DNA of 64,000 nucleotides from Nautiliaceae bacterium. Its GTDB lineage: Bacteria > Campylobacterota > Campylobacteria > Campylobacterales > Nautiliaceae. The stretch lies in contig JAMOSZ010000101.1 of assembly GCA_027062625.1 (NCBI GenBank), forward strand, positions 2,272 to 66,271. Reading direction: 5' to 3'. This document shows positions 6,069 through 49,769 of this stretch, in pieces; positions within the stretch are counted from its first letter, which is position 1, and every line of letters starts with the position of its first letter. The position numbers and the translations under genes are program-made. The notes beneath the pieces are model-generated. The model was not told where the DNA came from. It worked only from the letters and a program-made list of their open reading frames with translations, and made no database searches.

Positions 6069-7916
6069 TTATAACTCCTCAGCCTTTTCAACTTGATATA
6101 AAATATCATCCCACGGATGTCTATACATTGGCATTCCAAGTCTTTTTTCATCTAAGATATGACCTATAAATCCAATACTTCTTCCAAGGATAAAGAATGC
6201 ATTTAATGCCCCGCTTTCAATAAATTCATTTATTTCTTTCTCAGTATACCCTAAAACTCTCCACATGTCAACCATCAAAATACCGATTGTCCCGTCAACG
6301 TTTAGAATTAAGTTTTCTTTTTTTGAAGTTGTAACTTTTTCTACTTCAAGCGCATAATCAAGAAGTGGAGTTGCTGGGAAAAATTCTTTTGCATATTTTT
6401 TAAGTCCTTCAACCCTCTTATCAGGGTTTCTGACCGATTTAATTCTATGCCCAATTCCAGGAATTGGAATACCTTGTTTTTTCATATAGTTAACAAACTC
6501 TACTGGACTCATTCCTTTATCATAAGCATACTTAAAGTATTTAGCCGCACCATCAATTGCCCCACCAAATCTTGGTCCGATTGTAAGAAGTCCAGTTACC
6601 AAACTCTCAACCACACTTTTTCCAGCTCTTGCTGTAACTTTTGCATTATGAGCTCCACTAACTGCTGGTCCGTGGTCTGCAACCGTTTTAATAACAGTTT
6701 CAATAAAATCAGTTGCCCATTTTGGATATCTTTTCTTAAACCAAAGAAGTGTAATAACATCACCAATACTATATCCAGTATCAGGAGTTGCAACAGCACT
6801 AATTGGAATTCCAGCATATACTGCTTCTTCTCCTCTATCATCTGAAATTGTACATACAAAGTTTCTTGGTTTTCTAATTTTCCCAGCTGCAAGTGCTTTT
6901 GAATAATCTTCTGGAATTGGCGGAACTTCTGGTTCTTCAATATCTTTAATAACACCCTCACCTTTTAATTGCTCATAAACTCCTCTAATTACATGAGGCA
7001 AGTCATTAAAGTTATCTGGTACATGAATTCCAGCTTCTTTCATAGCTCTATTTTTAGCCTCAGCTGTCTCTTCATCAGCATTTGCACTTGCTCCCGCATG
7101 TCCAAATTGCACGCCACTATCAAAATGTTTAGCAATTGTACCAATACACCATCCAATTACTGGTTTTGTAATTTTTCCTTCTTTAATTGCTTCAATTACT
7201 TTATACTCTTCTCTACCACCAACTTCTCCAAGAAGTATCATATATTTAACTTGTGGATTTTTCTCCATTCTAAGCATATGGTCAATAAAAGTTGAGCCTA
7301 CAAATCTATCACCACCAATCGCAACTCCCTCAGCAATTCCATCAGCATTTAGTGCAATAATATTGCTAAGCTCATTGAAAAGTCCTCCACTTCTTGTTAC
7401 AAGTCCAGCACTTCCAGGTCTATGGAGTTTTGATTTTACAATATTTTCAATTGTCCCACCAATATTTGCAACTTTAAACGCACCAGGAGTAATAGCACCA
7501 ACAGTTGCAGGACCAATAATTGTAACTCCTTTTTTTCTAGCTTTTTTATTCATAAGTCTTGCAAGTCTCTCAGGTATCCCCTCAGCAGTAATCATAATTA
7601 CTCTAAATTGGTCCATATCCAAAGCTTCATTTGTTACATCATAAGCCGTTCTAAATGAAGCAAAGTTAAGTAAAACATCAGCATTTGGATGATTTTTTAC
7701 TGCCTCAGCCGTGCTTTTATAAATTGGAATCATAACTTCATCAGTACCAAAGAAAAACTTCTCAAATTTAGCTGAGCTTGTTGGAGCAACAATAGCCGCT
7801 ACTGATGGTTTTTCTCTTTTAATTACATAATCATAATCAAGCATTCTCTGAATTGCTGATTTATTGTTATTCCAAAAAATTGCTTGTGTGTCTCTTGTAA
7901 ATAGTGCATTACTCAT
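6069..7916 (-). CDS. aclA: ATP-citrate lyase alpha subunit
   Basis: 615 aa. A succinyl-CoA-synthetase-alpha-like CoA-ligase domain is followed by a citrate-synthase-like C-terminal domain (GIGHRIKSVRNPD). The start overlaps the aclB stop. Confidence 0.95.
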   Translation of the reverse strand: MSNALFTRDTQAIFWNNNKSAIQRMLDYDYVIKREKPSVAAIVAPTSSAKFEKFFFGTDEVMIPIYKSTAEAVKNHPNADVLLNFASFRTAYDVTNEALDMDQFRVIMITAEGIPERLARLMNKKARKKGVTIIGPATVGAITPGAFKVANIGGTIENIVKSKLHRPGSAGLVTRSGGLFNELSNIIALNADGIAEGVAIGGDRFVGSTFIDHMLRMEKNPQVKYMILLGEVGGREEYKVIEAIKEGKITKPVIGWCIGTIAKHFDSGVQFGHAGASANADEETAEAKNRAMKEAGIHVPDNFNDLPHVIRGVYEQLKGEGVIKDIEEPEVPPIPEDYSKALAAGKIRKPRNFVCTISDDRGEEAVYAGIPISAVATPDTGYSIGDVITLLWFKKRYPKWATDFIETVIKTVADHGPAVSGAHNAKVTARAGKSVVESLVTGLLTIGPRFGGAIDGAAKYFKYAYDKGMSPVEFVNYMKKQGIPIPGIGHRIKSVRNPDKRVEGLKKYAKEFFPATPLLDYALEVEKVTTSKKENLILNVDGTIGILMVDMWRVLGYTEKEINEFIESGALNAFFILGRSIGFIGHILDEKRLGMPMYRHPWDDILYQVEKAEEL

Positions 7917-9280
7917 TATTTCGCTCCTTTTTTGTCATCTTCAAGTGCAATTCTAACAATATCAGTAATATGAGTTTCTGGTCCGTATACTTTAATTGGA
8001 AGCCCAAGTCTTTCTGCTGCTTCTTTTATATCCTTCAAACCTTTTTCATAGTTTGGACCACCGCGTCTAACATAGATTCTAACTCCAACATCTTTCATTC
8101 TATCAGCATATTTTTCAAACGCTTGAATAATTCCTTTAAATGTTTTAGCAACATCTGTAAAGTTTGCAATAGCACCACCAATAATTAAAATTTTATCTCT
8201 ACCTTGTGGGTCTTTTTCTCTTGTCATTAAATCAAGCACTGTTTCAGTATAAAATCTTGTCTCATCAGTTGTAGGACCACCTGAATACTCTCCATAGTTT
8301 GCCAAATCTTCCACTCCACCTGCTAAATCAGCAATAGTATCAGCATATACAACACTAGCACCACCACCTGCTACAAGTGTCCAGATTCTACCTTTTGGAT
8401 TAAGAACTGTAAGTTTTAATGAAGCACCGCTTTTTGCATCAGCTTCTGCAATTGCTTTTTCCTCTTTTGATTTTTCTGGCATACCAAATGGTGTTGGAAA
8501 TTCAATATCTCCCCATTTTTCTTTCATCAAAAATCCAGCCGTATCATCAAGTCTTGCAACTAAATCAAGAAGATATACTTTATCATCCTTAATTACAACT
8601 GGATTAATTTCAAGGTATGCAAAGTTTAAGTCTCTAAAAAATTTATAAAAATTGATTGCAAAATTTGCATATACATCTTTTTTATCTTCTGGAATATCTG
8701 CTGGAATATTTTCTTTAATTAATTTTTCAATCTCTTCATCACTTGCATCAATTGGAATTTTAACCTCAGTTACTTTATCCCAATTCTCTTCAACTTCCAT
8801 TCCTCCATGAGCTGACATATACAAAACATCATAATTTTCATCCAAACTTGCAGCCGCAATATAATACTCTTCATCCTCACTATGCGGAGTAAAAGGTTCT
8901 ACGATAAAGTAAGTTAAATAATCCTCTTTTGGTTCACCAACTGGTTTATCACCTTCGAATTTTGAGTAAACTTTTACTTTATTTTTTCTTTTTTCATCAA
9001 TCCATTTAGCCGCATCTTCAAGAGTTACATCACCTGGCTTATTAATTTTAAATAAAACTAAGTTATTTTTACCCCTTTTACCAAAAAGCATATCCGGTTT
9101 TGCAACAAGAGGTTTTTGTTTTAGCCACTCATATCCAGGTTCCCCAGCTTTTTTTAAAAGCTCCTCTCCACTTCTTACTAAAACACTCTCAAAAGGATAT
9201 TTTAATCCTTTAAAATAGTTATCCCAATTCTCTGCAAAAAGTCTTTTACCATCATATTCGCGTATTGGTTTTTGAGCCAT
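7916..9280 (-). CDS. aclB: ATP-citrate lyase beta subunit
   Basis: 454 aa. It begins MAQKPIREYDGKRL, typical of AclB, has an ATP-grasp / SCS-beta-like fold, and lies directly upstream of aclA. Confidence 0.95.
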   Translation of the reverse strand: MAQKPIREYDGKRLFAENWDNYFKGLKYPFESVLVRSGEELLKKAGEPGYEWLKQKPLVAKPDMLFGKRGKNNLVLFKINKPGDVTLEDAAKWIDEKRKNKVKVYSKFEGDKPVGEPKEDYLTYFIVEPFTPHSEDEEYYIAAASLDENYDVLYMSAHGGMEVEENWDKVTEVKIPIDASDEEIEKLIKENIPADIPEDKKDVYANFAINFYKFFRDLNFAYLEINPVVIKDDKVYLLDLVARLDDTAGFLMKEKWGDIEFPTPFGMPEKSKEEKAIAEADAKSGASLKLTVLNPKGRIWTLVAGGGASVVYADTIADLAGGVEDLANYGEYSGGPTTDETRFYTETVLDLMTREKDPQGRDKILIIGGAIANFTDVAKTFKGIIQAFEKYADRMKDVGVRIYVRRGGPNYEKGLKDIKEAAERLGLPIKVYGPETHITDIVRIALEDDKKGAK

Positions 9281-11117: not shown

Positions 11118-12002
11118 ATGCAGAGTCTAAAAGAGAAACTAAAAAATAAATTAATAACACTTGAAACAACACCCCCAAAGCTTCCAACCATAAAACCAAT
11201 GATAGAAAAGCTACAAAAAAGCGAAGCTTATAAATATGTCGATGGATTCTCAACAACAGATTGTCCTCTTAGCAAATTAAAATTTAATTCCATAATAGCA
11301 GCATATAGACTCCAAGAAACTTTTAAAAAACCAGTAATTGCTACAATGACAATGAGAGATAGAAATTTAATTGCACTTCAAAGCGACTTACTTGGAGCAA
11401 ATGAACTTGATGTAACTCACATACTAGCAATTACCGGAGATAGCGTAAGAATTTCTGACCAAAAAGCAAAAGGGGTTTTGGAAGGAAATAGTCTTTTACT
11501 TTTAGAGATAATTGAAAAATTTAATAAAGGACAAGATTTTATGGGAAAAGAGTTTAAAATTCCACCAAAACCAATAACTCCATTTGCAGTAAGCAACTCT
11601 TTTGCTAAAAATTTCTCTTCAATTGAAAAAAAAATATACAAAAAAGCCTCTAAAAAAGCAGCAGCAATTATAACCCAGCCAATTTACAATATTGAAATAG
11701 CTAAAAAATTTATTGAAATAAGAGATAAGATAAAAAAAGAGTTTAGTGATTTTGAGATAGTTTTTGGGTTCTTTCCAATTACAAAACTAAAAACAGCCCT
11801 GTTTTTACAAAAAAATGTACCAGGAATTTATGTACCAAATGAATGGATTGAAAACTTACAAAAAGCTCAAAACGAAAAAGAGGAAGAATTAATCGGATTT
11901 GAAATGAGCAAAGAACTATTTAAAAAACTCTTTACTCTAAACCCTCGCATCCATATAATGACTGCAAACCACTTTGAGATAGTAAAAAAACTATTAGAAT
12001 GA
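11118..12002 (+). CDS. metF: Methylenetetrahydrofolate reductase (MetF family)
   Basis: 294 aa. The ETTPPK, TMRDRN and ILAITGD segments match the MTHFR TIM-barrel family pattern. Confidence 0.7.
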   Translation: MQSLKEKLKNKLITLETTPPKLPTIKPMIEKLQKSEAYKYVDGFSTTDCPLSKLKFNSIIAAYRLQETFKKPVIATMTMRDRNLIALQSDLLGANELDVTHILAITGDSVRISDQKAKGVLEGNSLLLLEIIEKFNKGQDFMGKEFKIPPKPITPFAVSNSFAKNFSSIEKKIYKKASKKAAAIITQPIYNIEIAKKFIEIRDKIKKEFSDFEIVFGFFPITKLKTALFLQKNVPGIYVPNEWIENLQKAQNEKEEELIGFEMSKELFKKLFTLNPRIHIMTANHFEIVKKLLE

Positions 12003-12872
12003 TTTTGAAAACTCTAACATATAAGTATCAGAAAATGTATCTTTGTCTCCTTCTTCAAAATAAGTTTTAGTATACTTAACTCCAACCCCTGTTGTTTTAT
12101 TAATTGAATAGTTAACTTTAATATATGCTTTTCCCTTATACTCATCATTTAAACTATAAACAACAAATCCTCCACTTTCTACCTTATAAGCATTTTTACC
12201 AATATTTCCACCAATTGTAGTAACCCAAGGACCCTGTGCATTAGTATATTTTGCTTCTGCATTTACATAATTCTTTTTGCCAGTTACATCTTTATCCGAA
12301 ATATTAATAAAATTAAGCTTAACCTCTACATAATGACTTCCACCAGGTGCATAATAATTTCCAAAATTCACTCCTCCAAAAAGAGTATATTGATTTACAT
12401 GAAAATTATTATACATTGAATAATAAAAATCAACTCCTGCATTATAAGCTAAATAAACATAATACATAACTCCACCAAATAATACTTTATCGTAATTATC
12501 CGGATTATCCTTTTGGTCAATAAAAACATTATGAATACCAACTTTATAATCCCAGTTATATCCTTGATAATAGTGAGCTGCAAAAGTTAAATCATATTGA
12601 TTCCAATCACTTGGATTATAAGTAGTAGTTATAGTAGAAGAAGGTGTGATAGGAACACTCTTAGTAATTGATTTATATTTAATTTTTAAATATTCACCAT
12701 CTAGTTCAAACTTAACAGGAAAATTATAATAACTTGCATAAATCCCAAATAAATCTGCATAATCCTTTGTAGATTTATCTCCATAATGAATATAAGCTCC
12801 ATAAGGCATTAGAGTACTTGTGCTCGCTGCAAAAGAAAGTGTTGCTACAACCGATAATAAAAATTTTTTCAT
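11994..12872 (-). CDS. Outer-membrane beta-barrel protein (function unknown)
   Basis: Signal peptide MKKFLLSVVATLSFA. The sequence is Y/G/N-rich with alternating hydrophobicity and a C-terminal ...EFSKSF with terminal Phe, as in OMP beta-barrels. Its start overlaps the preceding gene by 4 nt. Confidence 0.6.
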   Translation of the reverse strand: MKKFLLSVVATLSFAASTSTLMPYGAYIHYGDKSTKDYADLFGIYASYYNFPVKFELDGEYLKIKYKSITKSVPITPSSTITTTYNPSDWNQYDLTFAAHYYQGYNWDYKVGIHNVFIDQKDNPDNYDKVLFGGVMYYVYLAYNAGVDFYYSMYNNFHVNQYTLFGGVNFGNYYAPGGSHYVEVKLNFINISDKDVTGKKNYVNAEAKYTNAQGPWVTTIGGNIGKNAYKVESGGFVVYSLNDEYKGKAYIKVNYSINKTTGVGVKYTKTYFEEGDKDTFSDTYMLEFSKSF

Positions 12873-13462
12873 AATTGCTCCTTTAAATTAATTTTATATC
12901 CTAAATTTTTAATATTATCAACTTCAAATCCCTTTTTTCTAAGAGAAGAGATAATAACTTTAACCGAATTTAAAGAATCTATCCCTCTTACCCTATCAAC
13001 AATCTCTTCTTTACTTACAAACCTCTCTCTATTTTTTAATAGATAAAACAAAAGCTCCTTTTCTGCTAAGGTAAGATTTAAAAGCTCTTTATCTTTATAA
13101 ATATTGCCTGTTTGTAAATTTACCAAAAAATTACCCCATTTTACAATACCTGATTTAGCTTTAAACAACTTATTTTCAATATATTTTAGTCTATGCTTTA
13201 TTTTATACACTTCATCAAACTGATAACAAAAATCTCCAACGCTAAGCGCCTTTTTATAAATAACTTCATCCACAAAAGAAGCAATAAAAATAACATACCC
13301 TCTAATTAAATGTCTTGCTGCAAGCAAAGAAGAGAGAAAATCAAAATTGACTATTACTACGTCATAATCTTTTACTACCCTATCAAAAAACTCTTCTTCA
13401 CTGCTTACAAACTCTCCATTAAAATCAGCCCAATTTGCATAATCAAAAATTAAAACTCTCAT
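12869..13462 (-). CDS. OmpR/PhoB-type winged-helix DNA-binding protein with a degenerate receiver-like N-terminal domain
   Basis: The C-terminal LTLAEKELLFYLLKNRERFVSKEEIV...LRKKGF...GYKI is the trans_reg_C pattern. The N-terminal half lacks the DD pair and has VVIVNFDF where the phospho-acceptor (LxLLD) is expected. Confidence 0.65.
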   Translation of the reverse strand: MRVLIFDYANWADFNGEFVSSEEEFFDRVVKDYDVVIVNFDFLSSLLAARHLIRGYVIFIASFVDEVIYKKALSVGDFCYQFDEVYKIKHRLKYIENKLFKAKSGIVKWGNFLVNLQTGNIYKDKELLNLTLAEKELLFYLLKNRERFVSKEEIVDRVRGIDSLNSVKVIISSLRKKGFEVDNIKNLGYKINLKEQL

Positions 13463-14082
13463 TTGATAAGCTTTAAATAATATTTTGCACTAACATTTGT
13501 CGGATCTAAAATCAAAACATTTTCAAAAACACTTTTTGCTTTTTTAAAATCTTTTAAATTATAAAGACTCATTCCAAGATTTACAAGATATAAAACGCTT
13601 GTTGGATATAAAGAGAGCATTTTATAATCAATTTTTATCGCTTCTTTATACATTTTAAGCCCAATAAGAGCTGCTACATAATAATAATTGCCATAAAAAT
13701 TGTAATAATCAATCTGTTTAATAATAACTCCCCCAATCTCTACACTATTATTATATTTTTCCATAGCATTATAAACTCTCATAAGCCCAAGTTTTGGTTC
13801 AACTGCATAAGGATAAACCATAGAAGCAATCCTATAATGTTTTATAGCATTTTCATATCTTCGAGCTAAATAAAAAAGCCACCCAAGTCTTAAATTAATA
13901 GTATATCCATTTGGATAGAGTTTGTAAACTGGAATTAAAACTTTAATAGCATCTTTATAATCTCCCATCTTCTCATATTTATAAGATTGATAATAAGCAT
14001 CTTTTATTTCATCTTTTGTTAAATTATATTCCCCCCCAAATAAAAATACAAAACTAACTATAATAAGAAAAAGCTTTTTCAC
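13459..14082 (-). CDS. TPR-repeat protein with N-terminal signal peptide
   Basis: 207 aa with signal peptide MKKLFLIIVSFVFLFG. It carries repeated 34-residue A/Y/L patterns (YKDAIKVL, YENAIKHY, YKEAIKID, FKKAKSVFENVLILDPTN). Confidence 0.7.
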   Translation of the reverse strand: MKKLFLIIVSFVFLFGGEYNLTKDEIKDAYYQSYKYEKMGDYKDAIKVLIPVYKLYPNGYTINLRLGWLFYLARRYENAIKHYRIASMVYPYAVEPKLGLMRVYNAMEKYNNSVEIGGVIIKQIDYYNFYGNYYYVAALIGLKMYKEAIKIDYKMLSLYPTSVLYLVNLGMSLYNLKDFKKAKSVFENVLILDPTNVSAKYYLKLIK

Positions 14083-16090
14083 GATTTCTCCTTAACTCTT
14101 TATTTTTAAGTATTACCTTATCAAATCCTTTCTCATAAAAACTAAATCTAACCTCTCCAAATCTTGATTTTATAGACAATTTCTCTTTTTGATACTCCTC
14201 TTTTTGATTAAACAACTTATAATAAAAAGATAACAACACCTCTTTTATAATAAGTTCAACTCCCTTATATTTCAAATCAAGTGGTAACACATCACAAAAT
14301 TTAACATCCTTATTAATAAAAGGAACTCTTGGGACAAGTTTAAAAATTTCTTTTAAATACCCATCCCCGCCCTCATACTTATAAAAATAGAAAAACTTCT
14401 CAACTGAATAAAAATAAAGCCTATTATCTCCCTCTTTAAAATAAAACTCTCCATTTTCATTCATCCCTACTTTAAAACAAACCTTATCCACAACTTTCCC
14501 ATTCTCAATTACATCATAGCAATACTCATCATCCAAAATAAAAGTCATTCTAAGCTTCATTGATTTATCAACAGCCAAACACTCAATCTCTTCATCCTTT
14601 TTTGGAAGAGAGTAAAAATAAAGTCTATTATCTTTAATATACTCAACAAATTTAAAAGGCAAAGTTTCACTTCCAAGATATGGAGCCTTTTGGACTTGAA
14701 TATGAATATGAGGCTCAGGAGAGTATCCGCTATTTCCACATTTTCCTATAATATCGCCATACTTTACATAATCTCCAACTTTAAAAGGAATTGAATATTG
14801 CATAAGATGAGAAATTTCCACATAAAATCCACTATCACTTTTAATAATAACATAATTTCCCCAATTATTTTCTCTATCAACTTCCCCTATAAAATTATCC
14901 TTTAAATCACTTCTCATAGCAACAATATATCCACTAATAGGAGTAATAACTGGTTGCCCAAAAGCATAATAATCTTCCAAATAAAGTCCATCATTTGCAT
15001 AGGTTTTTCCATTTTTCTTAATTACAAAATCATACGCATACCTCCACTTACCCTTATGAGTCCACTCTCCATCAAAAGGTTGATATACACTCCACTTATT
15101 ATAAAAAGGAAGATAAATCTTTATATCCCGCCCACCAAACCTATAAATAGTGGATAAAAAATTAACTAAACTTCTCTCAGGGGTTGATTTAATATCAAAA
15201 TTAAAATATTCATATCCACTCCAATAAAGAAGCATTAAAAACAAAATAATAACAATATTAAAAGGCATAGTATAAACAGGCAAAGAGTATTGATTAAAAA
15301 AAACTTCCATTGCATCAATTAAGACAACACTTAAAATAACTCCAATTAAAGCTAAAAGATAATTTTTAATATTTGGAATTAAAAAAACTCCTCCAAGAGC
15401 TATTGCAATTAAAATAAAATTAAAATTATAAGGTGAGTTCACTGCTAAAAAGTAAGAAATAAAAAGAGAGTGAAAAAATACTCCAACCAAATACCCAATA
15501 ATAGCAAGCAAAAACATAATACGAGAATAAAAAAGAAAAATAAGCAAAATCAAAATCCCAACAATATTAAAAGGCAAAAACAAAATCGTCCCAAGAGATT
15601 TTAAAAAGTTTGATATTAAATCCGAATTAATAGTAATATCACTAAATAGCGTTCTATTGATAATATTGCTAAATAAAGAGTAATATTTCAAACTTGCAAG
15701 ATAAAAAATCATACTTACAAACGCAAAAGGCAAAGATAAAATAGGCAAATTCCAAGTTAAAAAAACTCTATTAAGTCCAAAAGAGAGTAAAAAAGTAAAA
15801 ATACCAAGAATAATACTTAATCCAATCGTTAATAAACTTACATCAAAATAAAACCCAATCCCCATCCCAACAAGCAAAGAATTATAAAGATAAAATCCAT
15901 ACTTTAAATAATAATCTCTAAGAGAAGTAAATTCAGCAAACACAATAGTAGAAATTAACGCAACAACTCCTAAAATCGCAACACTTTTAAAAACAAAAGA
16001 GATAAGAAAAAGAAAAATGCCTAGCTTATAACTTCTTAAAAATAAGATAGAAGCAAAAGGCTTAAAAAATATCTCTAACTTCTCTTTCAT
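14054..16090 (-). CDS. Fusion protein: urea-transporter-like polytopic membrane domain, M23 metallopeptidase domain and an uncharacterised C-terminal domain
   Basis: 678 aa. The first ~300 aa hold about 9-10 TM helices. The centre has M23 hallmarks (WRYAYDF..., GNSGYSPEPHIHIQV with HxH). The last ~200 aa contain a duplicated DNRLYFYS motif. Confidence 0.7.
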   Translation of the reverse strand: MKEKLEIFFKPFASILFLRSYKLGIFLFLISFVFKSVAILGVVALISTIVFAEFTSLRDYYLKYGFYLYNSLLVGMGIGFYFDVSLLTIGLSIILGIFTFLLSFGLNRVFLTWNLPILSLPFAFVSMIFYLASLKYYSLFSNIINRTLFSDITINSDLISNFLKSLGTILFLPFNIVGILILLIFLFYSRIMFLLAIIGYLVGVFFHSLFISYFLAVNSPYNFNFILIAIALGGVFLIPNIKNYLLALIGVILSVVLIDAMEVFFNQYSLPVYTMPFNIVIILFLMLLYWSGYEYFNFDIKSTPERSLVNFLSTIYRFGGRDIKIYLPFYNKWSVYQPFDGEWTHKGKWRYAYDFVIKKNGKTYANDGLYLEDYYAFGQPVITPISGYIVAMRSDLKDNFIGEVDRENNWGNYVIIKSDSGFYVEISHLMQYSIPFKVGDYVKYGDIIGKCGNSGYSPEPHIHIQVQKAPYLGSETLPFKFVEYIKDNRLYFYSLPKKDEEIECLAVDKSMKLRMTFILDDEYCYDVIENGKVVDKVCFKVGMNENGEFYFKEGDNRLYFYSVEKFFYFYKYEGGDGYLKEIFKLVPRVPFINKDVKFCDVLPLDLKYKGVELIIKEVLLSFYYKLFNQKEEYQKEKLSIKSRFGEVRFSFYEKGFDKVILKNKELRRNREKAFSYYS

Positions 16091-16094
16091 CTCT

Positions 16095-17429
16095 TTACTT
16101 TAAGTATTCAGGCAGTTTTTCTCTTCTTACAATATCCTCTAAGCTCTCAGCCTCTCTTATTAAGTGAGGAGTCCCCTCTTTATCAATCAATACAACAGCT
16201 GGGCGATATCTAATAAACTGCATCCACTGAGTCACATTATAAGCTCCAACTGGCCAGATTGTCATAACCGCTCCTCTTTTTAAAGGAGGTAGCATAATAT
16301 TTTCATTGATAATATCAATATTCATACAAAGAGGTCCGTTTATCTGACTTGGCTCATTTAATCCCTCATACCTTTTATCAAGGAAAATCTCAAAGTTATA
16401 CCAAAATGCAGTATACAAAAGATTAACCCCAGCATCTACAATATAACTCTCTTTTCCATCCGGGAGTCTCTTGCTTGCAAAAAGGGTTGTCAAAAGATAC
16501 CCAGCCTCATCAATCAACGCTCTTCCCGTTTCAAGATAGAGTTTTGGAAGTTTTCCTTTATTATGTTCATAAATGGCACTTGTAATTGCCTCTGCATACT
16601 CATCGGCACTTGGAACGATTACTTCTGGTGGCTGATAAACTCCTTTTAATCTATTCTTACTTGCAAATCCACCACCAACATCAATATACTCAATCCCATA
16701 TCCAAAGTCCTCTTCAACTCTATTTTTAAGCTGCACTAACTTCATTGTCTCATTTTTATACGCTTCTGTGCTTAGCATAAACGTTCCAATATGGGAGTGA
16801 AGCCCAGTTAAAATAAGTTTTTTACCCTCATAAATTCTCTTTATTGCATCATAAGCTTCCCCATTATCAATATTAAACCCAAACCTGCTCCACTGAGGAT
16901 AAACACCCGTATCCATATTACACCTAATAGCCACCGGAATCTCAACTCCAAGCTCATTAGCAATATCTTCAAGGTCGTTTATCTCATACCAATGGTCAAT
17001 ATGAATTTTTGCCCCCTCTTTTATAGCAACCATTAAAGCCTCTTTTGGTTTATAAGGTCCGTTAAAGATAATATCTTTTCCCTCAATTCCAAGGCGTCTT
17101 GCTTTTTGATACTCAAATTCACTAACTACCTCAGCCTTGCTTCCAAGTTTGTGAAACACTTTACAAATTGCATCAAGATAGTTTGTCTTATAACTCCACC
17201 AAAACTCAACATCTGGATATCTGCTTGAAAAAGCCTCTTTAAATTCACTATATTTCTCTTCAATCTGTCTTTGAGAAAAAACAAAAAGAGGACTTCCATA
17301 TTTTTCTGTAAGTTCTCTAACACTAACCCCATCAATTTCACTTTTTATCTTTTGAGCTTTTAGTGGGCTTCCATATTTACTCGCCAAATTAAAATCAACT
17401 CTATTAATTGTAGGTTTTACATATCCCAT
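16095..17429 (-). CDS. Fold-type III PLP-dependent decarboxylase (Orn/DAP/Arg decarboxylase family, LysA-like)
   Basis: 444 aa. The PLP-lysine context WSYKTN, the HSHIGT motif and the glycine loop DVGGGF are all present. Substrate is not assignable from sequence. Confidence 0.85.
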   Translation of the reverse strand: MGYVKPTINRVDFNLASKYGSPLKAQKIKSEIDGVSVRELTEKYGSPLFVFSQRQIEEKYSEFKEAFSSRYPDVEFWWSYKTNYLDAICKVFHKLGSKAEVVSEFEYQKARRLGIEGKDIIFNGPYKPKEALMVAIKEGAKIHIDHWYEINDLEDIANELGVEIPVAIRCNMDTGVYPQWSRFGFNIDNGEAYDAIKRIYEGKKLILTGLHSHIGTFMLSTEAYKNETMKLVQLKNRVEEDFGYGIEYIDVGGGFASKNRLKGVYQPPEVIVPSADEYAEAITSAIYEHNKGKLPKLYLETGRALIDEAGYLLTTLFASKRLPDGKESYIVDAGVNLLYTAFWYNFEIFLDKRYEGLNEPSQINGPLCMNIDIINENIMLPPLKRGAVMTIWPVGAYNVTQWMQFIRYRPAVVLIDKEGTPHLIREAESLEDIVRREKLPEYLK

Positions 17430-17438
17430 TTTCTCTCC

Positions 17439-18443
17439 TTAAAGTTCTTTTTGTGTTAAAAGTTTTGTAAAATCGCTAAAATCCCTCATAACCTCATCCA
17501 CATACCTTACATAAAGTTTTTCACAAGGGTATGTAAGTTTTTTTTCAACCTCTCTCCCTTGCATAATATCCACCATCATCTGTGGAAGGTTAACTCCAAG
17601 CATTGTCGCAAAATAAACCCAAGCCGGAAATCTTGGATTAATTTCAATTAAATAGATATCATCTCCACTTGCAATTGCTTCAAGTTCAAAAGCTCCCCTC
17701 CACTCACTAATTTCTACAAATTTATGGGCTAAATCAATTAACTTTTTATTATCAATACTAACAGCACTCCAAACTTTTCCAAGGTCAGTTGTCGTAAGTT
17801 TTTTAATTCCAACTCCTCCAAAAAGCTCTTTATTGGCAAGTCCTACATAGTTTATCTCAACTCCTTTTACAACTTCTTGCACTAAAAGCGGAAATCCCCA
17901 CTCATTTGAGATTTTATAAAAATATTCAATTGCTTCATCCAAAGAGTAAGCCATATAAGCTTTATAGTAATTTCCTTTTACCATTACAGGAAGCCCTATC
18001 TCTTTTACAGCCTTTACTAAATCATCAAGGCTTATAACTTCAATAGTTTTTGGATGTTTTACCCCAAGTTTTTTCACAAATTCTGGCAAGCATCTTTTCT
18101 CTCTCATCTCAAAATTTTTTAAACTCGGCAAAAAGGTGTTTATACCAAGTCTTTTTAACTCCTCTTGATTTTTAATATACAAAGGCAGCTCAGCATCCAA
18201 ATTTGGAATAACCGCTTCAATATCACTTTTTCTCTTTATTTCAAGAAGCCTTTCTTTTGTATCCTCCCAACCAACATTTGGAAAAGGCATAAGATAGACT
18301 TTCTCAAAAATCCCTTGATAAATCCCAGGCTCATTTACATCATAACTAAGCCCAATTAAATTATGTCCTTTTAGACTTTTAGCAACAGGCACGCCCGGTG
18401 CTGGATTGTCTGTATTATTAAGCCCACTAATTGCCACTCTCAT
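17439..18443 (-). CDS. ATP-grasp carboxylate-amine ligase (substrate unknown)
   Basis: 334 aa. It has the central ATP-grasp pattern (PVMVKG..., LVQEVVKG) and a C-terminal LIEINPRFPAW Mg-ATP loop. Its start overlaps the stop of the PqqD-like gene (ATGA). Confidence 0.8.
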   Translation of the reverse strand: MRVAISGLNNTDNPAPGVPVAKSLKGHNLIGLSYDVNEPGIYQGIFEKVYLMPFPNVGWEDTKERLLEIKRKSDIEAVIPNLDAELPLYIKNQEELKRLGINTFLPSLKNFEMREKRCLPEFVKKLGVKHPKTIEVISLDDLVKAVKEIGLPVMVKGNYYKAYMAYSLDEAIEYFYKISNEWGFPLLVQEVVKGVEINYVGLANKELFGGVGIKKLTTTDLGKVWSAVSIDNKKLIDLAHKFVEISEWRGAFELEAIASGDDIYLIEINPRFPAWVYFATMLGVNLPQMMVDIMQGREVEKKLTYPCEKLYVRYVDEVMRDFSDFTKLLTQKEL

Positions 18444-18673
18444 TTTATAAGCCCATATACTTTAAGTTTTATAAAAAAATCCTCAACATCAATATAAACC
18501 TCTCTCCAATCTATATTATACTTCTCAGCCAAAATCTTTACAATCTCTTCTTTACTTTTACCCTCTTTAATAAGCTCTATTATCTCTTTTGCAGTTTCGC
18601 TAAGCTGAAAACTAATTCCAAGAGATGGAATAAAAGCTACTCCATTCTCATCAATAATCATCTCATTAATCAT
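18440..18673 (-). CDS. PqqD-like small winged-helix protein (RiPP-recognition-element-type fold)
   Basis: 77 aa. LSETAKEIIELIKEGKSKEEIVKILAEKYNID...VYIDVEDFFIKLKVYGLI matches the PqqD-family pattern. A strong RBS (AAAGGAGG) lies 6 nt upstream of the ATG. Confidence 0.6.
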   Translation of the reverse strand: MINEMIIDENGVAFIPSLGISFQLSETAKEIIELIKEGKSKEEIVKILAEKYNIDWREVYIDVEDFFIKLKVYGLIK

Positions 18674-18727
18674 AAATTCCTCCTTTTTGTATTTGCCCTA
18701 TTATAAAAAAGAAAAGTAAACAAAAAG

Positions 18728-20761
18728 TTATTTTCTTTGTAAAAAGAAAATAACTATCCAAATAGCAATACCGATAAGATAAGAAAAATATTCATTTGGA
18801 AGGTGAAGATATTTTGAAGTAATGTTTGGAAGCATAAAAAAAGGCACTGCAATTAAAAATAAAATCCTCTCTAAAAAATTACATCTTTTGATAAAATAAC
18901 CTTGCGTAGCTGACGAAAAGCTAAACATACCAAGCATAGCAGTTATAAAGATAACTATAATTTTTATAGGGTCAGTTATAAAACTAAATTCATTTACATC
19001 CCACTCATTTACACTTGCAATAAGTAAAAGTTCAGTATTAAAGAAAAACATAAAAGGAAGAATAGCCGTTCTTATATCATATGCAAATCCTTGAAGTCCC
19101 GTTTTAATAGGGTCAGCCTTTGCAATTCCAGCAGCTGCATATGCCGCAATCCCAACAGGAGGAGTATCATCAGCCAAAATCCCAAAATAAAAAACAAACA
19201 GATGCGCAGCAATTGCTGGGATTAAAAACCCGGCATCCTGGGCAAGTTCAAGCATTACAGGAGCTGTAAGTGAAGCTACAACGATATAATTTGCAGTAGT
19301 TGGGAGCCCCATTCCAAGAATTAAAGAGATAAAGGCTGTAAGCAAAAGCACTATTAAGATATTTCCGTTTGCCAAAGTATCAATCACATCAAGTAAAACT
19401 TGTCCAATCCCAGTTAGAGTAATACTTCCAACAACAATCCCAGCAATTGCAGTAGCAAGGGCAATTGGAACCATATTTTTTGCTCCATTTACCATTCCGT
19501 GGAAAATATCAACAAAACCTTGAATAAAATCTTGTTTTGTAACTTTTCTTTTTTCAATAAATAAAGCTTTAAAAGGAGATTGCACTATCATAATAACCAT
19601 CAAAAGCCAAATAGCACTAAACGCCGCCATCTGGGCTGATTGACGAAGAACAATTAAGACATACATTAAATAAGCCACAGGGATTAAATAGTGAAGCCCG
19701 CTTATAAAAGTTTTTAGTTTTGGAGGAAGTTTACTTTCATCTTCTCCTTTAAGTCCTAGTTTTTTAGCTTCTAAATGAACTATATAAAACAAAGCCAAAT
19801 AACTAACAATAGCTGGAATAGCAGCTGCAATAATTACATCAGTATAACTAAGCCCTAAAAATTCCGCAATAATAAAAGCAGCCGCTCCCATTACAGGTGG
19901 CATAAGCTGACCGTTTGTTGAAGCGGCTACTTCAATGGCTGCTGCTTTTTCTGGGGGGAATCCAGCTTTTTTCATAAGTGGAATCGTAAAAACCCCAGTA
20001 GTTACAACGTTTGCAGTTGAGCTTCCGCTAATAATTCCTGTAAGTCCGCTTGCAACAACACTTGCTTTTGCAGGACCGCCGCTATATTTTCCAAGGAGGG
20101 CATAAGCAAGCTTTATAAAATACTCTCCTGCTCCTGCACGCTCTAATAAACTTCCAAAAAGAACGAATAAAAACACAAACCCCGCACTAACCCCAAGAGG
20201 AACTCCAAAAATACCCTCAGTCGTCAGATACATCTGAGTTACAATCTTTTCAATGCTTGCTGGTTTGTGAGAGATAAGCTCTGGCAAAACATCACCAAAT
20301 TTATCATACGCTAAAAAAACAAGCGCTACAATGCTAAGAGCAATGCCTATAACTCTTCTTCCAGCTTCTAAAAGCAAAATTATAAAAATTACCCCAATTA
20401 CAATATCTCGCGTATAAAAATCCCCAATTCTATTTGAAATCCCAACATAATCAATCGCAATATAAGCAGCCCCCAAGCCTCCAAGGATTGCTAAAAGCCA
20501 ATCATACCAGGGGATTGTTTTTAAAAATTTTGGTTTTTTGGCAATTGGATAAATTAAAAACGCAAGAACCATAGCAAAAGCCAAATGAATACTTCTAACA
20601 ATCGTAGAGTTTACCGGAAAATAACTAACATAAAGCTGAAATAAAGACCAAGCAAAAGCAATTAAAGATATTATCCAATAATAGATATGAGTTGAAGGAA
20701 AGTTTCTCTGTCCTTCAAGTTCACTTAAAAGCTTCTCTTCTAAATCTTTATTAACTTGCAT
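18728..20761 (-). CDS. TRAP transporter fused permease (DctQ/DctM-type, TAXI-associated 4TM/12TM fusion)
   Basis: 677 aa with many TM helices. Its size and its position directly after a TAXI receptor gene are typical of fused TAXI-TRAP permeases. Confidence 0.9.
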   Translation of the reverse strand: MQVNKDLEEKLLSELEGQRNFPSTHIYYWIISLIAFAWSLFQLYVSYFPVNSTIVRSIHLAFAMVLAFLIYPIAKKPKFLKTIPWYDWLLAILGGLGAAYIAIDYVGISNRIGDFYTRDIVIGVIFIILLLEAGRRVIGIALSIVALVFLAYDKFGDVLPELISHKPASIEKIVTQMYLTTEGIFGVPLGVSAGFVFLFVLFGSLLERAGAGEYFIKLAYALLGKYSGGPAKASVVASGLTGIISGSSTANVVTTGVFTIPLMKKAGFPPEKAAAIEVAASTNGQLMPPVMGAAAFIIAEFLGLSYTDVIIAAAIPAIVSYLALFYIVHLEAKKLGLKGEDESKLPPKLKTFISGLHYLIPVAYLMYVLIVLRQSAQMAAFSAIWLLMVIMIVQSPFKALFIEKRKVTKQDFIQGFVDIFHGMVNGAKNMVPIALATAIAGIVVGSITLTGIGQVLLDVIDTLANGNILIVLLLTAFISLILGMGLPTTANYIVVASLTAPVMLELAQDAGFLIPAIAAHLFVFYFGILADDTPPVGIAAYAAAGIAKADPIKTGLQGFAYDIRTAILPFMFFFNTELLLIASVNEWDVNEFSFITDPIKIIVIFITAMLGMFSFSSATQGYFIKRCNFLERILFLIAVPFFMLPNITSKYLHLPNEYFSYLIGIAIWIVIFFLQRK

Positions 20762-20811: not shown

Positions 20812-20823
20812 AAAAAAAGAGGA

Positions 20824-21783
20824 TTACTTAGGAAGTAACCCTTCTTCTTGAAACGCTTTTTTAGCTCCTGGATGCATCATATTTAAATCAAATCCTTTTA
20901 ATAAATCTTTTTTAGTTAGATTTTTATAAGCTGGATGCATTCTTTTAAATTTATCAAAATTATCAAGGATTGCCTTTGTTAGATAATAAACCGTTTTATC
21001 ATCCATTTTATCGTTTGTAACTAAAATTGCTTTTACTCCATAAGTTTTTGTTGGATGATTTACTCCTTTATACATTCCAGCAGGAATTACTCCCCAAGCA
21101 TAATATGGTTTCTCTTTTACCAGTTTTTGAGCAGCTGGCACATTATCAAGAGAGATTAAATCAATATCAGTTGAGTTTGCCGCATCTTTAATGTTTGCAG
21201 TTGGATGTCCTACCATATAAAAGTATCCATCAATTTTTTTATCTTTAAGTGCATTTGGACACTCTGAGGCTTTAAGTTGTTCTATTTTTAAATCATTTAA
21301 TTTCATACTTTTACAATATTCAAAAAGTGTCTTAACCGCAGCTTCGTTACCACTTCCAGGGTTACCGATATTAATTCTATGTCCTTTTAAATCAAAAAAG
21401 TTTTTAATTCCACTATCTTTTCTTACTACAAGAGTTAGTAACTCTGGATGAATACTCATAACAACTCTAAGAGCTTTATAAGGCTTTCCTTTAAATTTAC
21501 CTTCCCCATGATAAGCCTGATAAACAACATCACTCTGAGCTATACCAAAATCAAGCTCCCCTTTTCTAATAGCATTAATATTATAAACACTCCCACCTGT
21601 ACTCTCAACTGTGCACTTAATTCCAGTTTCTCTTTTCATTTTATTCATAAGTCTACAAATTGCACCACCTGTTGGATAATAAACACCTGTTACACTTCCT
21701 GTTCCTATTGTAATGTATTTATATCCAAAAGCATTTCCTGCAAGAATAGCCGCTGTTAGAAAACCAATTGTTAATTTTTTCAT
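20824..21783 (-). CDS. TAXI-family TRAP transporter solute-binding protein
   Basis: 319 aa with a signal peptide, the TIGTGSVTGVYYPTGGAICR motif and STGGSVYNINAIRKGELDFGIAQSD, characteristic of TAXI receptors. Confidence 0.9.
   Translation of the reverse strand: MKKLTIGFLTAAILAGNAFGYKYITIGTGSVTGVYYPTGGAICRLMNKMKRETGIKCTVESTGGSVYNINAIRKGELDFGIAQSDVVYQAYHGEGKFKGKPYKALRVVMSIHPELLTLVVRKDSGIKNFFDLKGHRINIGNPGSGNEAAVKTLFEYCKSMKLNDLKIEQLKASECPNALKDKKIDGYFYMVGHPTANIKDAANSTDIDLISLDNVPAAQKLVKEKPYYAWGVIPAGMYKGVNHPTKTYGVKAILVTNDKMDDKTVYYLTKAILDNFDKFKRMHPAYKNLTKKDLLKGFDLNMMHPGAKKAFQEEGLLPK

Positions 21784-22106: not shown

Positions 22107-22107
<1 letters not shown>
21805..22107 (-). pseudogene. Decayed tandem paralogue of the TAXI receptor gene (N-terminal ~25 codons fused to C-terminal ~75 codons, with stops and frameshifts)
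   Basis: My translation of the minus strand gives IKKLLLISFASLAFAIVIGTGSSFRIIGFC*, then ...LQLLNEKAQKLDDFDKFKKSLFQFKNITKRGLLKGFNLKMFHPGAKKSFYRRGDFMI*. The latter aligns with KAILDNFDKFKRMHPAYKNLTKKDLLKGFDLNMMHPGAKKAFQEEGLLPK* of the intact copy. Confidence 0.6.
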
Positions 22108-24893
<2,786 letters not shown>

Positions 24894-43232: not shown

Positions 43233-43605
43233 GGGGGTGACTTGGATTTCGACAGGGGTAATTAGCCCTAAGTTGCACGCCGACCTGAGCAAGTCGTAAA
43301 ACGGCTCACTAAAAATAAACGCAGCAAATAACAAAAATTATAGCCCAGCAGTAGCAAGAGCTGCTGCTTAATTAAGGATTTGGGCGCCTCCGTCCAATGA
43401 GGTTTTCCGCCACCTCGGACGGAGAGTAAAGTGCGGATAGGAAGTCTTGTCTGGATGGGGCAAGGCTTCTGAAACTTTACCCATCCCTACCAGGATAAAG
43501 GCTTTGTCTGTTGAGCCTCCTGGTAGTATAATCAACAGACTAAGCGTGTAGACACTTAGGGAAAATTGCTTCTGGACTGGGGTTCGATTCCCCACACCTC
43601 CACCA
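43233..43605 (+). ncRNA. ssrA: tmRNA (SsrA)
   Basis: The 5' GGGGGUG pairs with the 3' CACCUCC-ACCA, including the G3:U wobble needed for alanylation. A T-arm GGGGTTCGATTCCCC is present. The internal tag frame GCA AAT AAC AAA AAT TAT AGC CCA GCA GTA GCA AGA GCT GCT GCT TAA encodes ANNKNYSPAVARAAA*. The resume codon could instead be the preceding GCA. Confidence 0.95.
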
Positions 43606-49269: not shown

Positions 49270-49703
49270 GATTTTTTTTAGCTTTTTTGCTCACCTTTGG
49301 TATTGACCAAGCAATCAAATACCTTTTTTTAACCGGATTTGAATTTAACTCAAAATGCATCTCTCTAACCCTTGCAATTAACAAAGGAGTTGCCTTTTCA
49401 ATGCTAAGTTTCTTAGGAGAGTGGTTAAAGTATATTCAAATTGGCCTTATTATCATTCTTTTAATAACCTTTATAAAAGAAAAAATAATAAAAAATCATC
49501 CGATAATTTCTGGGATTTTATTTGGAGCTGCAATTTCAAACATAGTTGATAGATTTTTAAGAGGAGGAGTTGTTGATTATGTCTATTGGCATTGTGGATT
49601 TGATTTTGCAATTTTCAATTTTGCAGATGTTATGATAGATTTTGCTATTTTAATGTTTGCATATTTCTATTTTTTTGATAAAATTCGCACCAAGGTCGCG
49701 TAG
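49266..49703 (+). CDS. lspA: Lipoprotein signal peptidase (SPase II)
   Basis: 145 aa with four TM helices, NKGVAFS and VVDYV...FNFAD motifs. Its last 10 nt, including the TAG stop, lie inside the downstream tRNA gene. Confidence 0.85.
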
Positions 49704-49769
49704 CTCAGCTGGGAGAGCGTTGCCCCGACACGGCAAAGGTCACAGGTTCGAGCCCTGTCGCGACCACCA
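49694..49769 (+). tRNA. tRNA-Val (anticodon GAC), CCA encoded
   Basis: Hand-folded cloverleaf. Acceptor GGTCGCG/CGCGACC, D arm GCTC-AGCTGGGA-GAGC, anticodon arm TTGCC-CCGACAC-GGCAA, variable AGGTC, T arm ACAGG-TTCGAGC-CCTGT, discriminator A, then CCA. Position 33 reads C rather than the usual U. Confidence 0.85.

Follow-up and report, generated by a model that had tools for sequence, protein, structure and literature searches.

A conserved operon of PqqD-like, ATP-grasp, decarboxylase and urea-transporter-like proteins in a Nautiliaceae bacterium, with a possible role in production and export of a small metabolite

The pathways of pyrroloquinoline quinone (PQQ) and mycofactocin depend on a recognition element (RRE) of the kind used for peptides that are made on ribosomes and modified after translation (RiPPs), and both end in a small molecule. 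Urea transporter (UT) proteins form a narrow pore tuned for urea-sized planar molecules. In lasso peptides, the leader carries the motif Y(-17)xxP(-14)xL(-12), which is needed for recognition by the PqqD-type B1 protein (PMC10368454). The enzymes FigC, SbnH, AcsE, MccE and BtrK constitute one clade derived from diaminopimelate decarboxylase (DAPDC) (PMC7857480). Its characterised members other than DAPDC decarboxylate amino acids tethered by the side chain (citryl conjugates, microcin C and BtrI-S-Glu), the tether being citrate, a peptide-nucleotide or a carrier protein (PMC7857480). The operon analysed here combines a PqqD-like protein, an ATP-grasp ligase, a decarboxylase and a UT-like membrane protein. 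It lies in a 64,000-nt stretch of the Nautiliaceae contig JAMOSZ010000101.1 (the whole stretch is called the window below), on the minus strand, from position 18673 down to 11994. Its core was found as a conserved module in many phyla of diderm bacteria. Our preferred reading, which we hold tentatively, is that the operon serves autonomously for the production of a small amine or amide metabolite and for its export across the whole envelope via a UT-like pore. The locus is 96-99% identical at the protein level to contig JBDONU010000101 of a metagenome-assembled genome (MAG). The seven genes are as follows, in the order of transcription.

18440-18673, minus strand: PqqD-like protein of 77 amino acids (Pfam PqqD)
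17439-18443, minus strand: ATP-grasp carboxylate-amine ligase of 334 amino acids (ATPgrasp_Ter; carbamoyl-phosphate-synthetase (CPS)-like/PylC-like clade)
16095-17429, minus strand: pyridoxal-phosphate-dependent decarboxylase of 444 amino acids, alanine-racemase fold, FigC/FslC-like (Orn_Arg_deC_N and Orn_DAP_Arg_deC)
14054-16090, minus strand: UT/M23 protein of 678 amino acids (Pfam UT and Peptidase_M23, then a C-terminal domain)
13459-14082, minus strand: exported tetratricopeptide repeat (TPR) protein of 207 amino acids, GTG start (TPR families)
12869-13462, minus strand: OmpR-type winged helix-turn-helix (wHTH) DNA-binding protein of 197 amino acids (Trans_reg_C)
11994-12872, minus strand: outer-membrane-protein (OMP)-like protein of 292 amino acids, probable outer-membrane β-barrel (signal-like N-terminus, C-terminal ...SKSF)

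A preliminary description of this DNA, made from its letters and open reading frames (ORFs), had reported seven minus-strand genes chained by short overlaps, and the ORF map agreed with it at all reported positions. Overlaps of 4 nt (ATGA) were located at 18440-18443, 13459-13462 and 12869-12872, the 29-nt overlap between the UT/M23 and TPR genes occupies 14054-14082, and the remaining gaps are of 9 nt and 4 nt. Shine-Dalgarno boxes of the AAGGAG type are found 5' of the PqqD, decarboxylase, TPR (GTG) and OMP genes; the genes without such a box, those for the ATP-grasp and wHTH proteins, both start within ATGA overlaps. Because a box precedes the TPR gene, its GTG start, and hence the 29-nt overlap, is supported. 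The overlaps thus survived a check of the start codons, the annotated starts being upheld by the placement of the boxes. Since the gene order recurs across phyla, the operon is more than a chance arrangement, in line with the single coupled unit that had been proposed.

To assess conservation, one genome per species (185,579 species) was scanned with an alignment of UT/M23 proteins. The scan gave 113 relatives, and the best 80 loci were kept. Among the 60 assessable loci, i.e. those with enough upstream sequence, 58 contained both the ATP-grasp and decarboxylase genes, and in 54 the PqqD, ATP-grasp, decarboxylase and UT/M23 genes were adjacent, on the same strand and in the same order. The preliminary description had asked whether these four genes are co-conserved, and these counts show that they are. 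The PqqD gene was detected in 50 of 58 loci by tblastn and in 6 more by ORF clustering (56/58). A TPR gene lies 3' of the UT/M23 gene in 50/54 loci, a homologue of the window OMP-like protein was found in 33/54, and the wHTH gene in 16/54 (tblastn with the window protein as query), all of them in Campylobacterota. Thus, of the 'three envelope proteins and a dedicated regulator' described earlier, the TPR protein is near-universal, while the barrel varies and the regulator was found in Campylobacterota only. In distant phyla the decarboxylase still has a median identity of 55%, the ligase 44%, the UT/M23 protein 40% and the TPR protein 43%. Carriers belong to Campylobacterota, Aquificota, Thermodesulfatator, Cloacimonadota, Delongbacteria, Victivallaceae, Microcoleaceae cyanobacteria and Magnetococcales. 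A Francisella and one Planctomycetota-like contig carry the module too, and cultures exist of the carriers Thermovibrio ammonificans HB-1, Nautilia sp. PV-1 and Nitratiruptor SB155-2. Neighbouring genes are wholly different between phyla, and those flanking the cluster in distant phyla are housekeeping genes that give no functional hint. The conserved module therefore consists of PqqD, ATP-grasp, decarboxylase, UT-M23 with its C-terminal domain and TPR, plus a lineage-variable outer-membrane partner, in many diderm phyla.

Other arrangements were seen at some MAG loci. At L023 the TPR and wHTH genes are retained, with flagellar-type and other genes upstream in place of the PqqD/ATP-grasp/decarboxylase triad. 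In a Cloacimonadota MAG (L069, 1711-12055), the cluster is broken by a methyltransferase-like gene between PqqD and ligase, and four unrelated genes separate the decarboxylase from UT/M23. Two of these four were presumed, by eye, to be DNA methyltransferase or restriction-modification genes, and the interruption looks like a mobile insertion. A search for known defence systems with PADLOC gave nothing relevant.

The domain calls were confirmed by profile hidden Markov models (Pfam and NCBIfam) for all the proteins except the OMP. The original domain list was thereby family-backed for six proteins and amended at two points: the regulator has no detectable receiver, and UT/M23 holds a third domain of ~200 amino acids. 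Neither Pfam nor NCBIfam contains a model specific to any of the seven proteins, and full-text literature searches on the domain combinations and on these genera found no published description of the module. The earlier statement that the operon matches no known pathway thus held against the curated families and the literature searched.

In the mechanism that we favour, production and export would proceed as follows. The ATP-grasp enzyme would join an amino acid via its side chain to a partner, either an acid or a group on a peptide or protein, and the decarboxylase would then strip the α-carboxylate from the tethered amino acid, like its characterised relatives. The PqqD-like protein would grip the decarboxylase by a Y-x-x-P-x-I tail, coupling it to the ligase. 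A cytoplasmic M23-like hydrolase and a β-domain at the cytoplasmic end of the UT channel would trim or release the product, which would leave through the narrow UT pore and be carried onward by a channel-docked periplasmic TPR protein and, in most lineages, an outer-membrane barrel. In Campylobacterota, a receiver-less OmpR-type protein would control the operon via a TTWAC-N6-TTWAC repeat. Of these elements, we infer the substrates, the contact between PqqD and tail, the role of M23 and the direction of transport.

The type of chemistry is suggested by the decarboxylase. Its best match in the PDB was FigC/FslC (7KH2, E 1.7e-54), ahead of DAP (diaminopimelate) decarboxylases, and BtrK was also matched (E 4.6e-25). 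It has near-invariant SYKTN and GGGF motifs, the active-site loop motifs WSRFGF and C-M-(N/Q)-x-D are common to the enzyme and FigC, and in 68 sequences 127 of its 444 positions show conservation of 97% or more. In a residue alignment with the DAPDC of M. jannaschii, T340 and M369, both at least 97% conserved across the family, replace an Arg and a Glu. We take this Arg (in the specificity helix) and this Glu (beside the catalytic Cys) to bind DAP at its distal carboxylate and ammonium. The enzyme scored below the cutoffs of both the LysA model (TIGR01048, 225.4 bits vs 297.9) and the FslC/FigC model (NF041039, 217 bits vs 500). Diaminopimelate decarboxylase was rejected as its identity on account of the LysA score and the replaced free-DAP recognition residues. 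By its best matches and the loss of these residues, the protein is predicted to belong to the DAPDC-derived 'conjugate' clade, and a tethered amino acid is, by analogy, the best guide to its type of substrate. The BtrJ/BtrK and siderophore precedents cited in the preliminary description were apt, the nearest solved relative being FigC/FslC.

The ligase matched ATPgrasp_Ter and the 'CPS-like' model PRK12767 (E 3e-26). In a profile search against the PDB, the best matches were 2pn1, CarB and PylC, and RimK, LysX and graspetide ligases were absent from the matches. Over 62 sequences, fifty-seven positions reach at least 97% conservation, and orthologues are all 335-349 amino acids long. Among the 120 best ligase orthologues no fusion of PqqD, ligase or decarboxylase was found. 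No family match to an IucA/IucC-type synthetase, as used for siderophores made independently of nonribosomal peptide synthetases (NIS synthetase), was obtained among the scanned cluster proteins.

The PqqD-like protein scored 44.7 bits with Pfam PqqD (cutoff 23.4), consistent with the RRE fold, and its best NCBIfam matches were lasso B1 models, below cutoff (29.7 vs 70). These matches speak for a RiPP-type pathway whose precursor is encoded elsewhere: PqqD would bind the leader, the ATP-grasp enzyme would add an amino acid, the decarboxylase would trim the added residue, M23 would remove the leader, and the UT protein, TPR and barrel would export the product. The set of RRE, peptidase, ATP-dependent amide ligase and membrane exporter also echoes lasso B1/B2/C/D, and MccE, from the same decarboxylase clade, acts on a peptide conjugate (PMC7857480). 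A precursor gene was searched by clustering all ORFs of 12-70 codons within 3 kb of the cluster at about 80 loci, and no conserved small ORF was obtained there, only shadow frames of neighbouring genes. A scan of the ORFs of up to 110 codons in the window for Y..P.[LIV] gave no credible leader-like ORF, and the gaps between genes of the window operon, only 4-54 nt, also speak against a hidden precursor. Neither an asparagine-synthetase-like cyclase nor a transglutaminase-like leader protease appeared among the Pfam/NCBIfam matches of the seven proteins. Moreover, the conserved core of the UT pore is too narrow for a peptide, and the sole conserved leader-like motif lies on the decarboxylase. 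With no precursor-peptide gene in or near the cluster in any lineage searched, the modified-peptide product considered in the preliminary description has lost ground, and we regard it as unlikely.

The leader-like motif lies in an extension at the N-terminus of the decarboxylase.

17367-17429, minus strand: N-terminal tail of the decarboxylase (residues 1-21), not covered by the LysA and FslC models

In the alignments with these two models, query residues 26-28 correspond to model positions 5-10. This tail of ~20 residues reads Y3-x-x-P6-x-I8 ... K18-x-G20. The pattern aromatic-x-x-P-x-(L/I/V/M) was found in 68/68 decarboxylases, which represent all phyla, and the Planctomycetota-like locus (L081) has it as well. 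At position 5 Lys is usual, but L081 has Pro. Y3, P6, I8, K18 and G20 are near-invariant across phyla, with G20 displaced by 1-2 residues in some lineages. Among the terminal segments of the cluster proteins, this tail alone has the motif in conserved form. The spacing from I8 to K18, 10 residues, equals that from L(-12) to position (-2) in lasso leaders. Because no precursor gene was found, the tail carries a conserved lasso-leader-like motif and the best matches of PqqD are lasso B1 models, we propose by analogy that the PqqD-like protein may bind the N-terminal tail of the decarboxylase.

The same tail could serve as a built-in leader. PqqD would then present Lys18, the ATP-grasp enzyme would attach an amino acid to it, the decarboxylase would trim this residue on the swinging arm, and M23 would free the product at the channel mouth. 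Such an enzyme-templated line is favoured by the near-invariance of the five tail residues and the lasso-like I8-K18 spacing (PMC10368454), by the acceptance of macromolecule-tethered substrates by BtrK and MccE, and by the searches, which gave no separate carrier or precursor gene. Its difficulty is economic, since a single amino acid that is tethered, decarboxylated and released is a product that cells make more cheaply. The tail could also be a mere dimer-interface or regulatory element, and the displacement of G20 counts against such a line. We consider this variant improbable; in the mechanism of production and export set out above, the tail would be an adaptor contact.

The UT/M23 protein was divided into three domains.

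15215-16090, minus strand: UT channel domain, residues 1-292 (Pfam UT; AlphaFold2 (AF2) match to dvUT)
14660-15133, minus strand: M23-like zinc-hydrolase domain, about residues 320-477 (Pfam Peptidase_M23)
14057-14659, minus strand: C-terminal β-rich domain, residues 478-678 (AF2 model, without family match)

Scores were 191 bits for Pfam UT and 46.6 bits for Peptidase_M23. The AF2 model of the full-length protein had a pLDDT (predicted local distance difference test) of 89.5 and a pTM (predicted template modelling score) of 0.85, and its UT part (residues 1-292) superposed on Desulfovibrio dvUT (3K3F) with a target-normalised TM-score of 0.80. Both UT pore motifs are present (LPILSLPF and LPVYTMPF). 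The human urea-recognition motif, a Q-T-T-Q relay (PMC11589576), was mapped onto the UT domain via alignments. The pore core (Y69, S119, F223, T274 and F277) is retained, each residue in 63-70 of 72 sequences. In the relay, T/S(5a) and T(5b) are kept, but Q(Pa) is S/A/E/T/N and Q(Pb) is variable as T/A/E/I/V. The score with the Yut equivalog (TIGR03441) was 101 bits, below its cutoff of 274.6. The domain is a UT-type pore that is probably not tuned to urea itself.

The retention of the UT fold and pore core is also an argument for transport in the opposite direction. Barrel, TPR and UT proteins would admit a urea- or amide-like nitrogen compound, which the cytoplasmic enzymes (M23 hydrolase, CPS-like ATP-grasp and decarboxylase) would trap and convert, as when a channel is paired with a kinase or urease. 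Since UT proteins conduct passively, a metabolic trap fused at the cytoplasmic mouth would be sensible; the nearest named relatives of the ATP-grasp enzyme are carbamoyl-phosphate-synthetase domains; and an outer-membrane barrel with a periplasmic partner fits import as well. However, it is hard to see what a conjugate decarboxylase and a PqqD adaptor would do in the assimilation of a urea-like compound, urease, allophanate hydrolase and amidase families were unmatched among the scanned cluster proteins and sampled neighbours, and the loss of the relay glutamines and the low Yut score count against it. Uptake was judged improbable too, and production with export is retained as the preferred function of the pore.

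Foldseek matched the M23 domain to lysostaphin, DipM and ShyA, and H345, D354, H428, H461 and H463 are conserved in 72/72 sequences. The canonical His of HxxxD is K/R at position 350, and the invariant H345 lies five residues upstream. The C-terminal domain was modelled with a pLDDT of 90. Against the PDB it gave no match below E 0.001, the best being RseB/LolA-like (E about 0.09). Its profile found 228 representative clusters among 1.84 billion proteins. In matches long enough to show the architecture, it stands almost always at about residues 450-690, the position that it has in the UT-M23 proteins, and in ten matches checked with Pfam, M23 was present in all and UT wherever the N-terminus was present.

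Topology was deduced from fusion proteins; hydropathy alone was tried, found too ambiguous for the UT fold and replaced by this argument. Three independent 50%-identity clusters (~1,075 amino acids) contain UT-M23 and the C-terminal domain, then an Arg-rich stretch, one hydrophobic helix and two TPR modules; one of them is annotated as Pirellulales and the group is Pirellulales-like. The fused modules are homologous to the window TPR protein, with the NLRLGWL motif in common. The stand-alone TPR protein has an N-terminal signal sequence and keeps ~43% identity across phyla. The C-terminus of known UT proteins is cytoplasmic, and the window UT/M23 protein has neither a signal peptide nor a transmembrane helix after the UT domain. 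Because the fusions need an Arg-rich stretch and an extra transmembrane helix to reach the TPR, M23 and the C-terminal domain would be cytoplasmic and the TPR periplasmic, according to the positive-inside rule. A cytoplasmic M23 domain is unusual.

This topology bears directly on a remodelling of peptidoglycan or envelope, in which a periplasmic M23 would cut murein and the cytoplasmic enzymes would build a modified stem-peptide block, for example by decarboxylation of the free D-centre in peptide-bound meso-DAP. M23 is classically a murein endopeptidase, with weak NCBIfam and PDB matches in that sense here, a DAPDC-derived enzyme without the distal-charge binders could accept peptide-bound DAP, and the TPR and outer-membrane partners are envelope proteins. 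The absence of any signal peptide or extra helix between UT and M23, the cytoplasmic C-terminus of the UT fold and the additional segments required by the fusions would all place M23 on the wrong side for this role. Its HxxxD motif is also non-canonical, and Mur-ligase and lipid II families were unmatched among the scanned cluster proteins and sampled neighbours. The envelope-modification module named as an option in the preliminary description is weakened by the fusion proteins, and we rate it as highly improbable; a cytoplasmic M23 would instead act on the product of the pathway before its export.

The Planctomycetota-like locus (L081, 4847-13616 of Ga0500020_0003919) lies on a high-GC contig of 31 kb and has the order PqqD, ATP-grasp, decarboxylase, a fusion of UT-M23, C-terminal domain, transmembrane helix and TPR, an AMP ligase and a second UT paralogue. 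The AMP ligase is an extra gene, coding for a PaaK/DVU_1553-like AMP-dependent ligase of 449 amino acids. In the second paralogue (510 amino acids), the loop that joins the two UT halves contains inserted TPR repeats; in solved UT structures this loop faces outwards. TPR modules are thus tied to the predicted outer face of UT domains in three architectures. Another protein (P0348, 1074 amino acids, from a Logan assembly) has UT-M23 and the C-terminal domain followed by a signal-like segment, a short TPR and a β-barrel-like region ending in ...NIFF; either it is a true fusion that is cleaved internally, or gene calling has run two genes together.

The last gene had been called a β-barrel OMP. 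No Pfam or NCBIfam match was obtained for its product even at E 10, so that call has no family backing, but the signal-peptide-like N-terminus, the C-terminal ...SKSF and the homologues in the same position (26-50% identity; Campylobacterota, Aquificota and Thermodesulfatator) agree with it. Where the window-type barrel is absent, its place is taken by another exported protein, by a fusion of TPR and barrel or by a large lipoprotein with TPR. The protein is a probable outer-membrane β-barrel and would be a lineage-variable component.

Upstream of the operon, two candidate control elements were located.

18716-18731, minus strand: operator-like direct repeat ATAAC-N6-TTTAC, 58 nt upstream of the PqqD start, 11-bp period
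18700-18705, minus strand: TATAAT -10 box, 26 nt upstream of the PqqD ATG and 10 nt downstream of the repeat

The TATAAT had been reported in the 54-nt gap upstream of PqqD and was found there, together with a strong ribosome-binding site. The repeat was discovered by aligning the upstream regions of many Campylobacterota loci. Its consensus is TTWAC-N6-TTWAC with an 11-bp period, and it is 52-70 nt distant from the downstream PqqD start and ~10 nt from a TAnAAT box on its downstream side, a box found at the matching relative position in other Campylobacterota loci. The copy in the window deviates by 1 mismatch; the stop codon of a permease gene of the tripartite ATP-independent periplasmic (TRAP) type overlaps with its first half-site. 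An exact repeat stands at this position in 21/53 loci, against 0.003 expected per locus, and is often the sole copy within the 20-kb locus. The window by itself shows no enrichment of the pattern, the evidence for which is its conserved position across loci, and consensus promoter matches there are not above chance in the AT-rich DNA. Exact repeat and wHTH gene occurred together in 17 loci, the repeat alone in 0, the regulator alone in 10 and neither in 10 (Fisher p = 6e-4, a value not corrected for shared ancestry, which lessens its weight for the proposed control step).

OmpR/PhoB-type winged-helix proteins bind direct repeats at one-helical-turn spacing over the -35 region. The wHTH protein matched Trans_reg_C (37.5 bits) and gave no Response_reg match in residues 1-110 even at E 10; it does not show the combination of receiver, phospho-acceptor Asp and Trans_reg_C of a two-component regulator, and no histidine-kinase domain was found in the Pfam/NCBIfam scans of the cluster proteins. 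It is likely the regulator of the operon. Because the spacing and position of the repeat fit binding of the OmpR/PhoB type and the repeat co-occurs with the wHTH gene, we concluded that the operon has its own promoter-like region, predicted to be regulator-controlled. Read-through from the upstream TRAP genes may occur but is not needed. The proposed link with this importer (a TRAP system with a binding protein of the TAXI type, TRAP-associated extracytoplasmic immunogenic protein) did not hold up, as the three closest MAGs of the Nautiliaceae (L001, L002 and L004) were the only ones with TAXI/TRAP genes ahead of the cluster. In sister lineages of the family (L005, L007 and L008), the gene for inosine monophosphate dehydrogenase (IMPDH) directly abuts PqqD. 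In the window, the TRAP pair thus looks inserted, separating the cluster from IMPDH (22107-23555), and TAXI-TRAP was rejected as a part of the module, being a lineage-specific neighbour of an operon with its own promoter and operator. A terminator scan of 18674-18727 found none and is uninformative in AT-rich DNA. A terminator-like hairpin with a T-run was observed at 20820-20842 (minus strand), between the genes for the TAXI binding protein and the TRAP permease. Such an inter-gene hairpin is the usual site of an attenuator favouring an excess of binding protein.

Several points weigh against production and export as we have described them. The main difficulty is size: most products of ligase-decarboxylase pairs (e.g. 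N-acyl diamines) would be too large for a UT pore, and either M23 frees a small fragment or the pore has adapted. The lack of conservation of the relay Gln pair weakens even a prediction of the class of permeant, and export rather than import is a step that we infer. The first metal-ligand motif of M23 is H-x8-D and not HxxxD, so hydrolase activity is not assured, and the placement of this domain in the cytoplasm rests on the positive-inside rule and on homology to the topology of eukaryotic UT proteins. The contact between PqqD and tail is an analogy drawn from a 6-residue motif. The specificity of the ligase is not legible from its sequence. Finally, at two MAG loci (L023, 10001-13196, and L065, 3851-5935), UT/M23 occurs without the adjacent PqqD/ATP-grasp/decarboxylase triad, and the two halves of the module can thus be separate in some genomes.

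If production and export through the pore are correct, this would be the first function assigned to a module carried by vent Campylobacterota and Aquificota, Cloacimonadota, cyanobacteria, Planctomycetota-like organisms, a Francisella and others. A biosynthetic pathway would have taken a urea-transporter fold as its outlet, a peptidase fold of the M23 'cell-wall' type would work inside the cytoplasm, and a RiPP recognition element would serve as a protein-protein adaptor. If the tail is instead a built-in leader, the operon would be a RiPP-like assembly line without a precursor gene, with a new class of exporter. The current labels 'urea transporter', 'diaminopimelate decarboxylase' and 'carbamoyl-phosphate synthase large subunit' are misleading and lead to faulty metabolic reconstructions.

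Other features of the window were noted. An ORF of 294 amino acids (11118-12002, plus strand) is convergent with the OMP-like gene, with a 9-nt overlap at the 3' end; by eye, we take it to be of the methylenetetrahydrofolate-reductase type. This convergent arrangement at the 3' end of the OMP gene is repeated in related Nautiliaceae loci. The ORF of 454 amino acids at 7916-9280 (minus strand) presumably codes for a β-type subunit of ATP-citrate lyase or succinyl-CoA synthetase, again by eye, an identity that fits a reverse tricarboxylic acid cycle autotroph of the Nautiliaceae. Rfam, used on the whole window at the gathering threshold, gave only a full-length tmRNA (43233-43605, plus strand, 175 bits) and a tRNA (49694-49766, plus strand).

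Among known systems, the siderophore pathways of rhizoferrin (FigA/FigC, FslA/FslC), staphyloferrin B (SbnH) and achromobactin/vibrioferrin (AcsE/PvsE) follow the same logic of ligation and then decarboxylation. They use an NIS (IucA/IucC) synthetase where this operon has an ATP-grasp enzyme; no TonB-dependent receptor or MFS exporter was matched among the scanned cluster proteins and sampled neighbours; and the operon adds the decarboxylase tail, the PqqD protein and the UT-M23 channel. In butirosin synthesis (BtrI/BtrJ/BtrK), an ATP-grasp enzyme and a DAPDC-derived decarboxylase are likewise paired and the substrate is tethered to a small protein. That protein is an acyl carrier protein with phosphopantetheine, whereas the only small protein of the operon has the PqqD/RRE fold and no PP-binding match, and the operon is without aminoglycoside genes and is coupled to a membrane channel. 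The LysW/LysX system is alike in idea, an amino acid being tethered to a small protein by an ATP-grasp enzyme, modified and released by a metallopeptidase (LysK). However, no LysW-like zinc-ribbon with an acidic C-terminus is present, the ligase falls outside the RimK/LysX clade, and the peptidase is M23 and not M20.

Like the lasso machinery (B1, B2, C and D), the operon has a stand-alone PqqD fold, a peptidase, an ATP-dependent amide-forming enzyme and a putative exporter. In lasso systems these are a transglutaminase-like peptidase, an asparagine-synthetase-like ligase and an ABC exporter, here M23, ATP-grasp and a UT channel. The lasso-leader motif YxxPx(L/I) and its 10-residue spacing are the same, but in the operon they are carried by an enzyme and no precursor gene accompanies them. 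With the urea transporters (dvUT, Yut, UT-A/UT-B), the UT domain has in common the fold, the LPxxxxPF motifs and the aromatic/hydroxyl pore core; unlike them, it is fused to M23 and a β-domain, its relay Gln is not conserved and it is embedded in a biosynthetic operon. The type of chemistry, a ligase followed by a conjugate decarboxylase, is therefore known from siderophores, butirosin and microcin C, and the new elements are the PqqD adaptor without precursor, the fusion of UT, M23 and β-domain, the coupling to TPR and the operator repeat.

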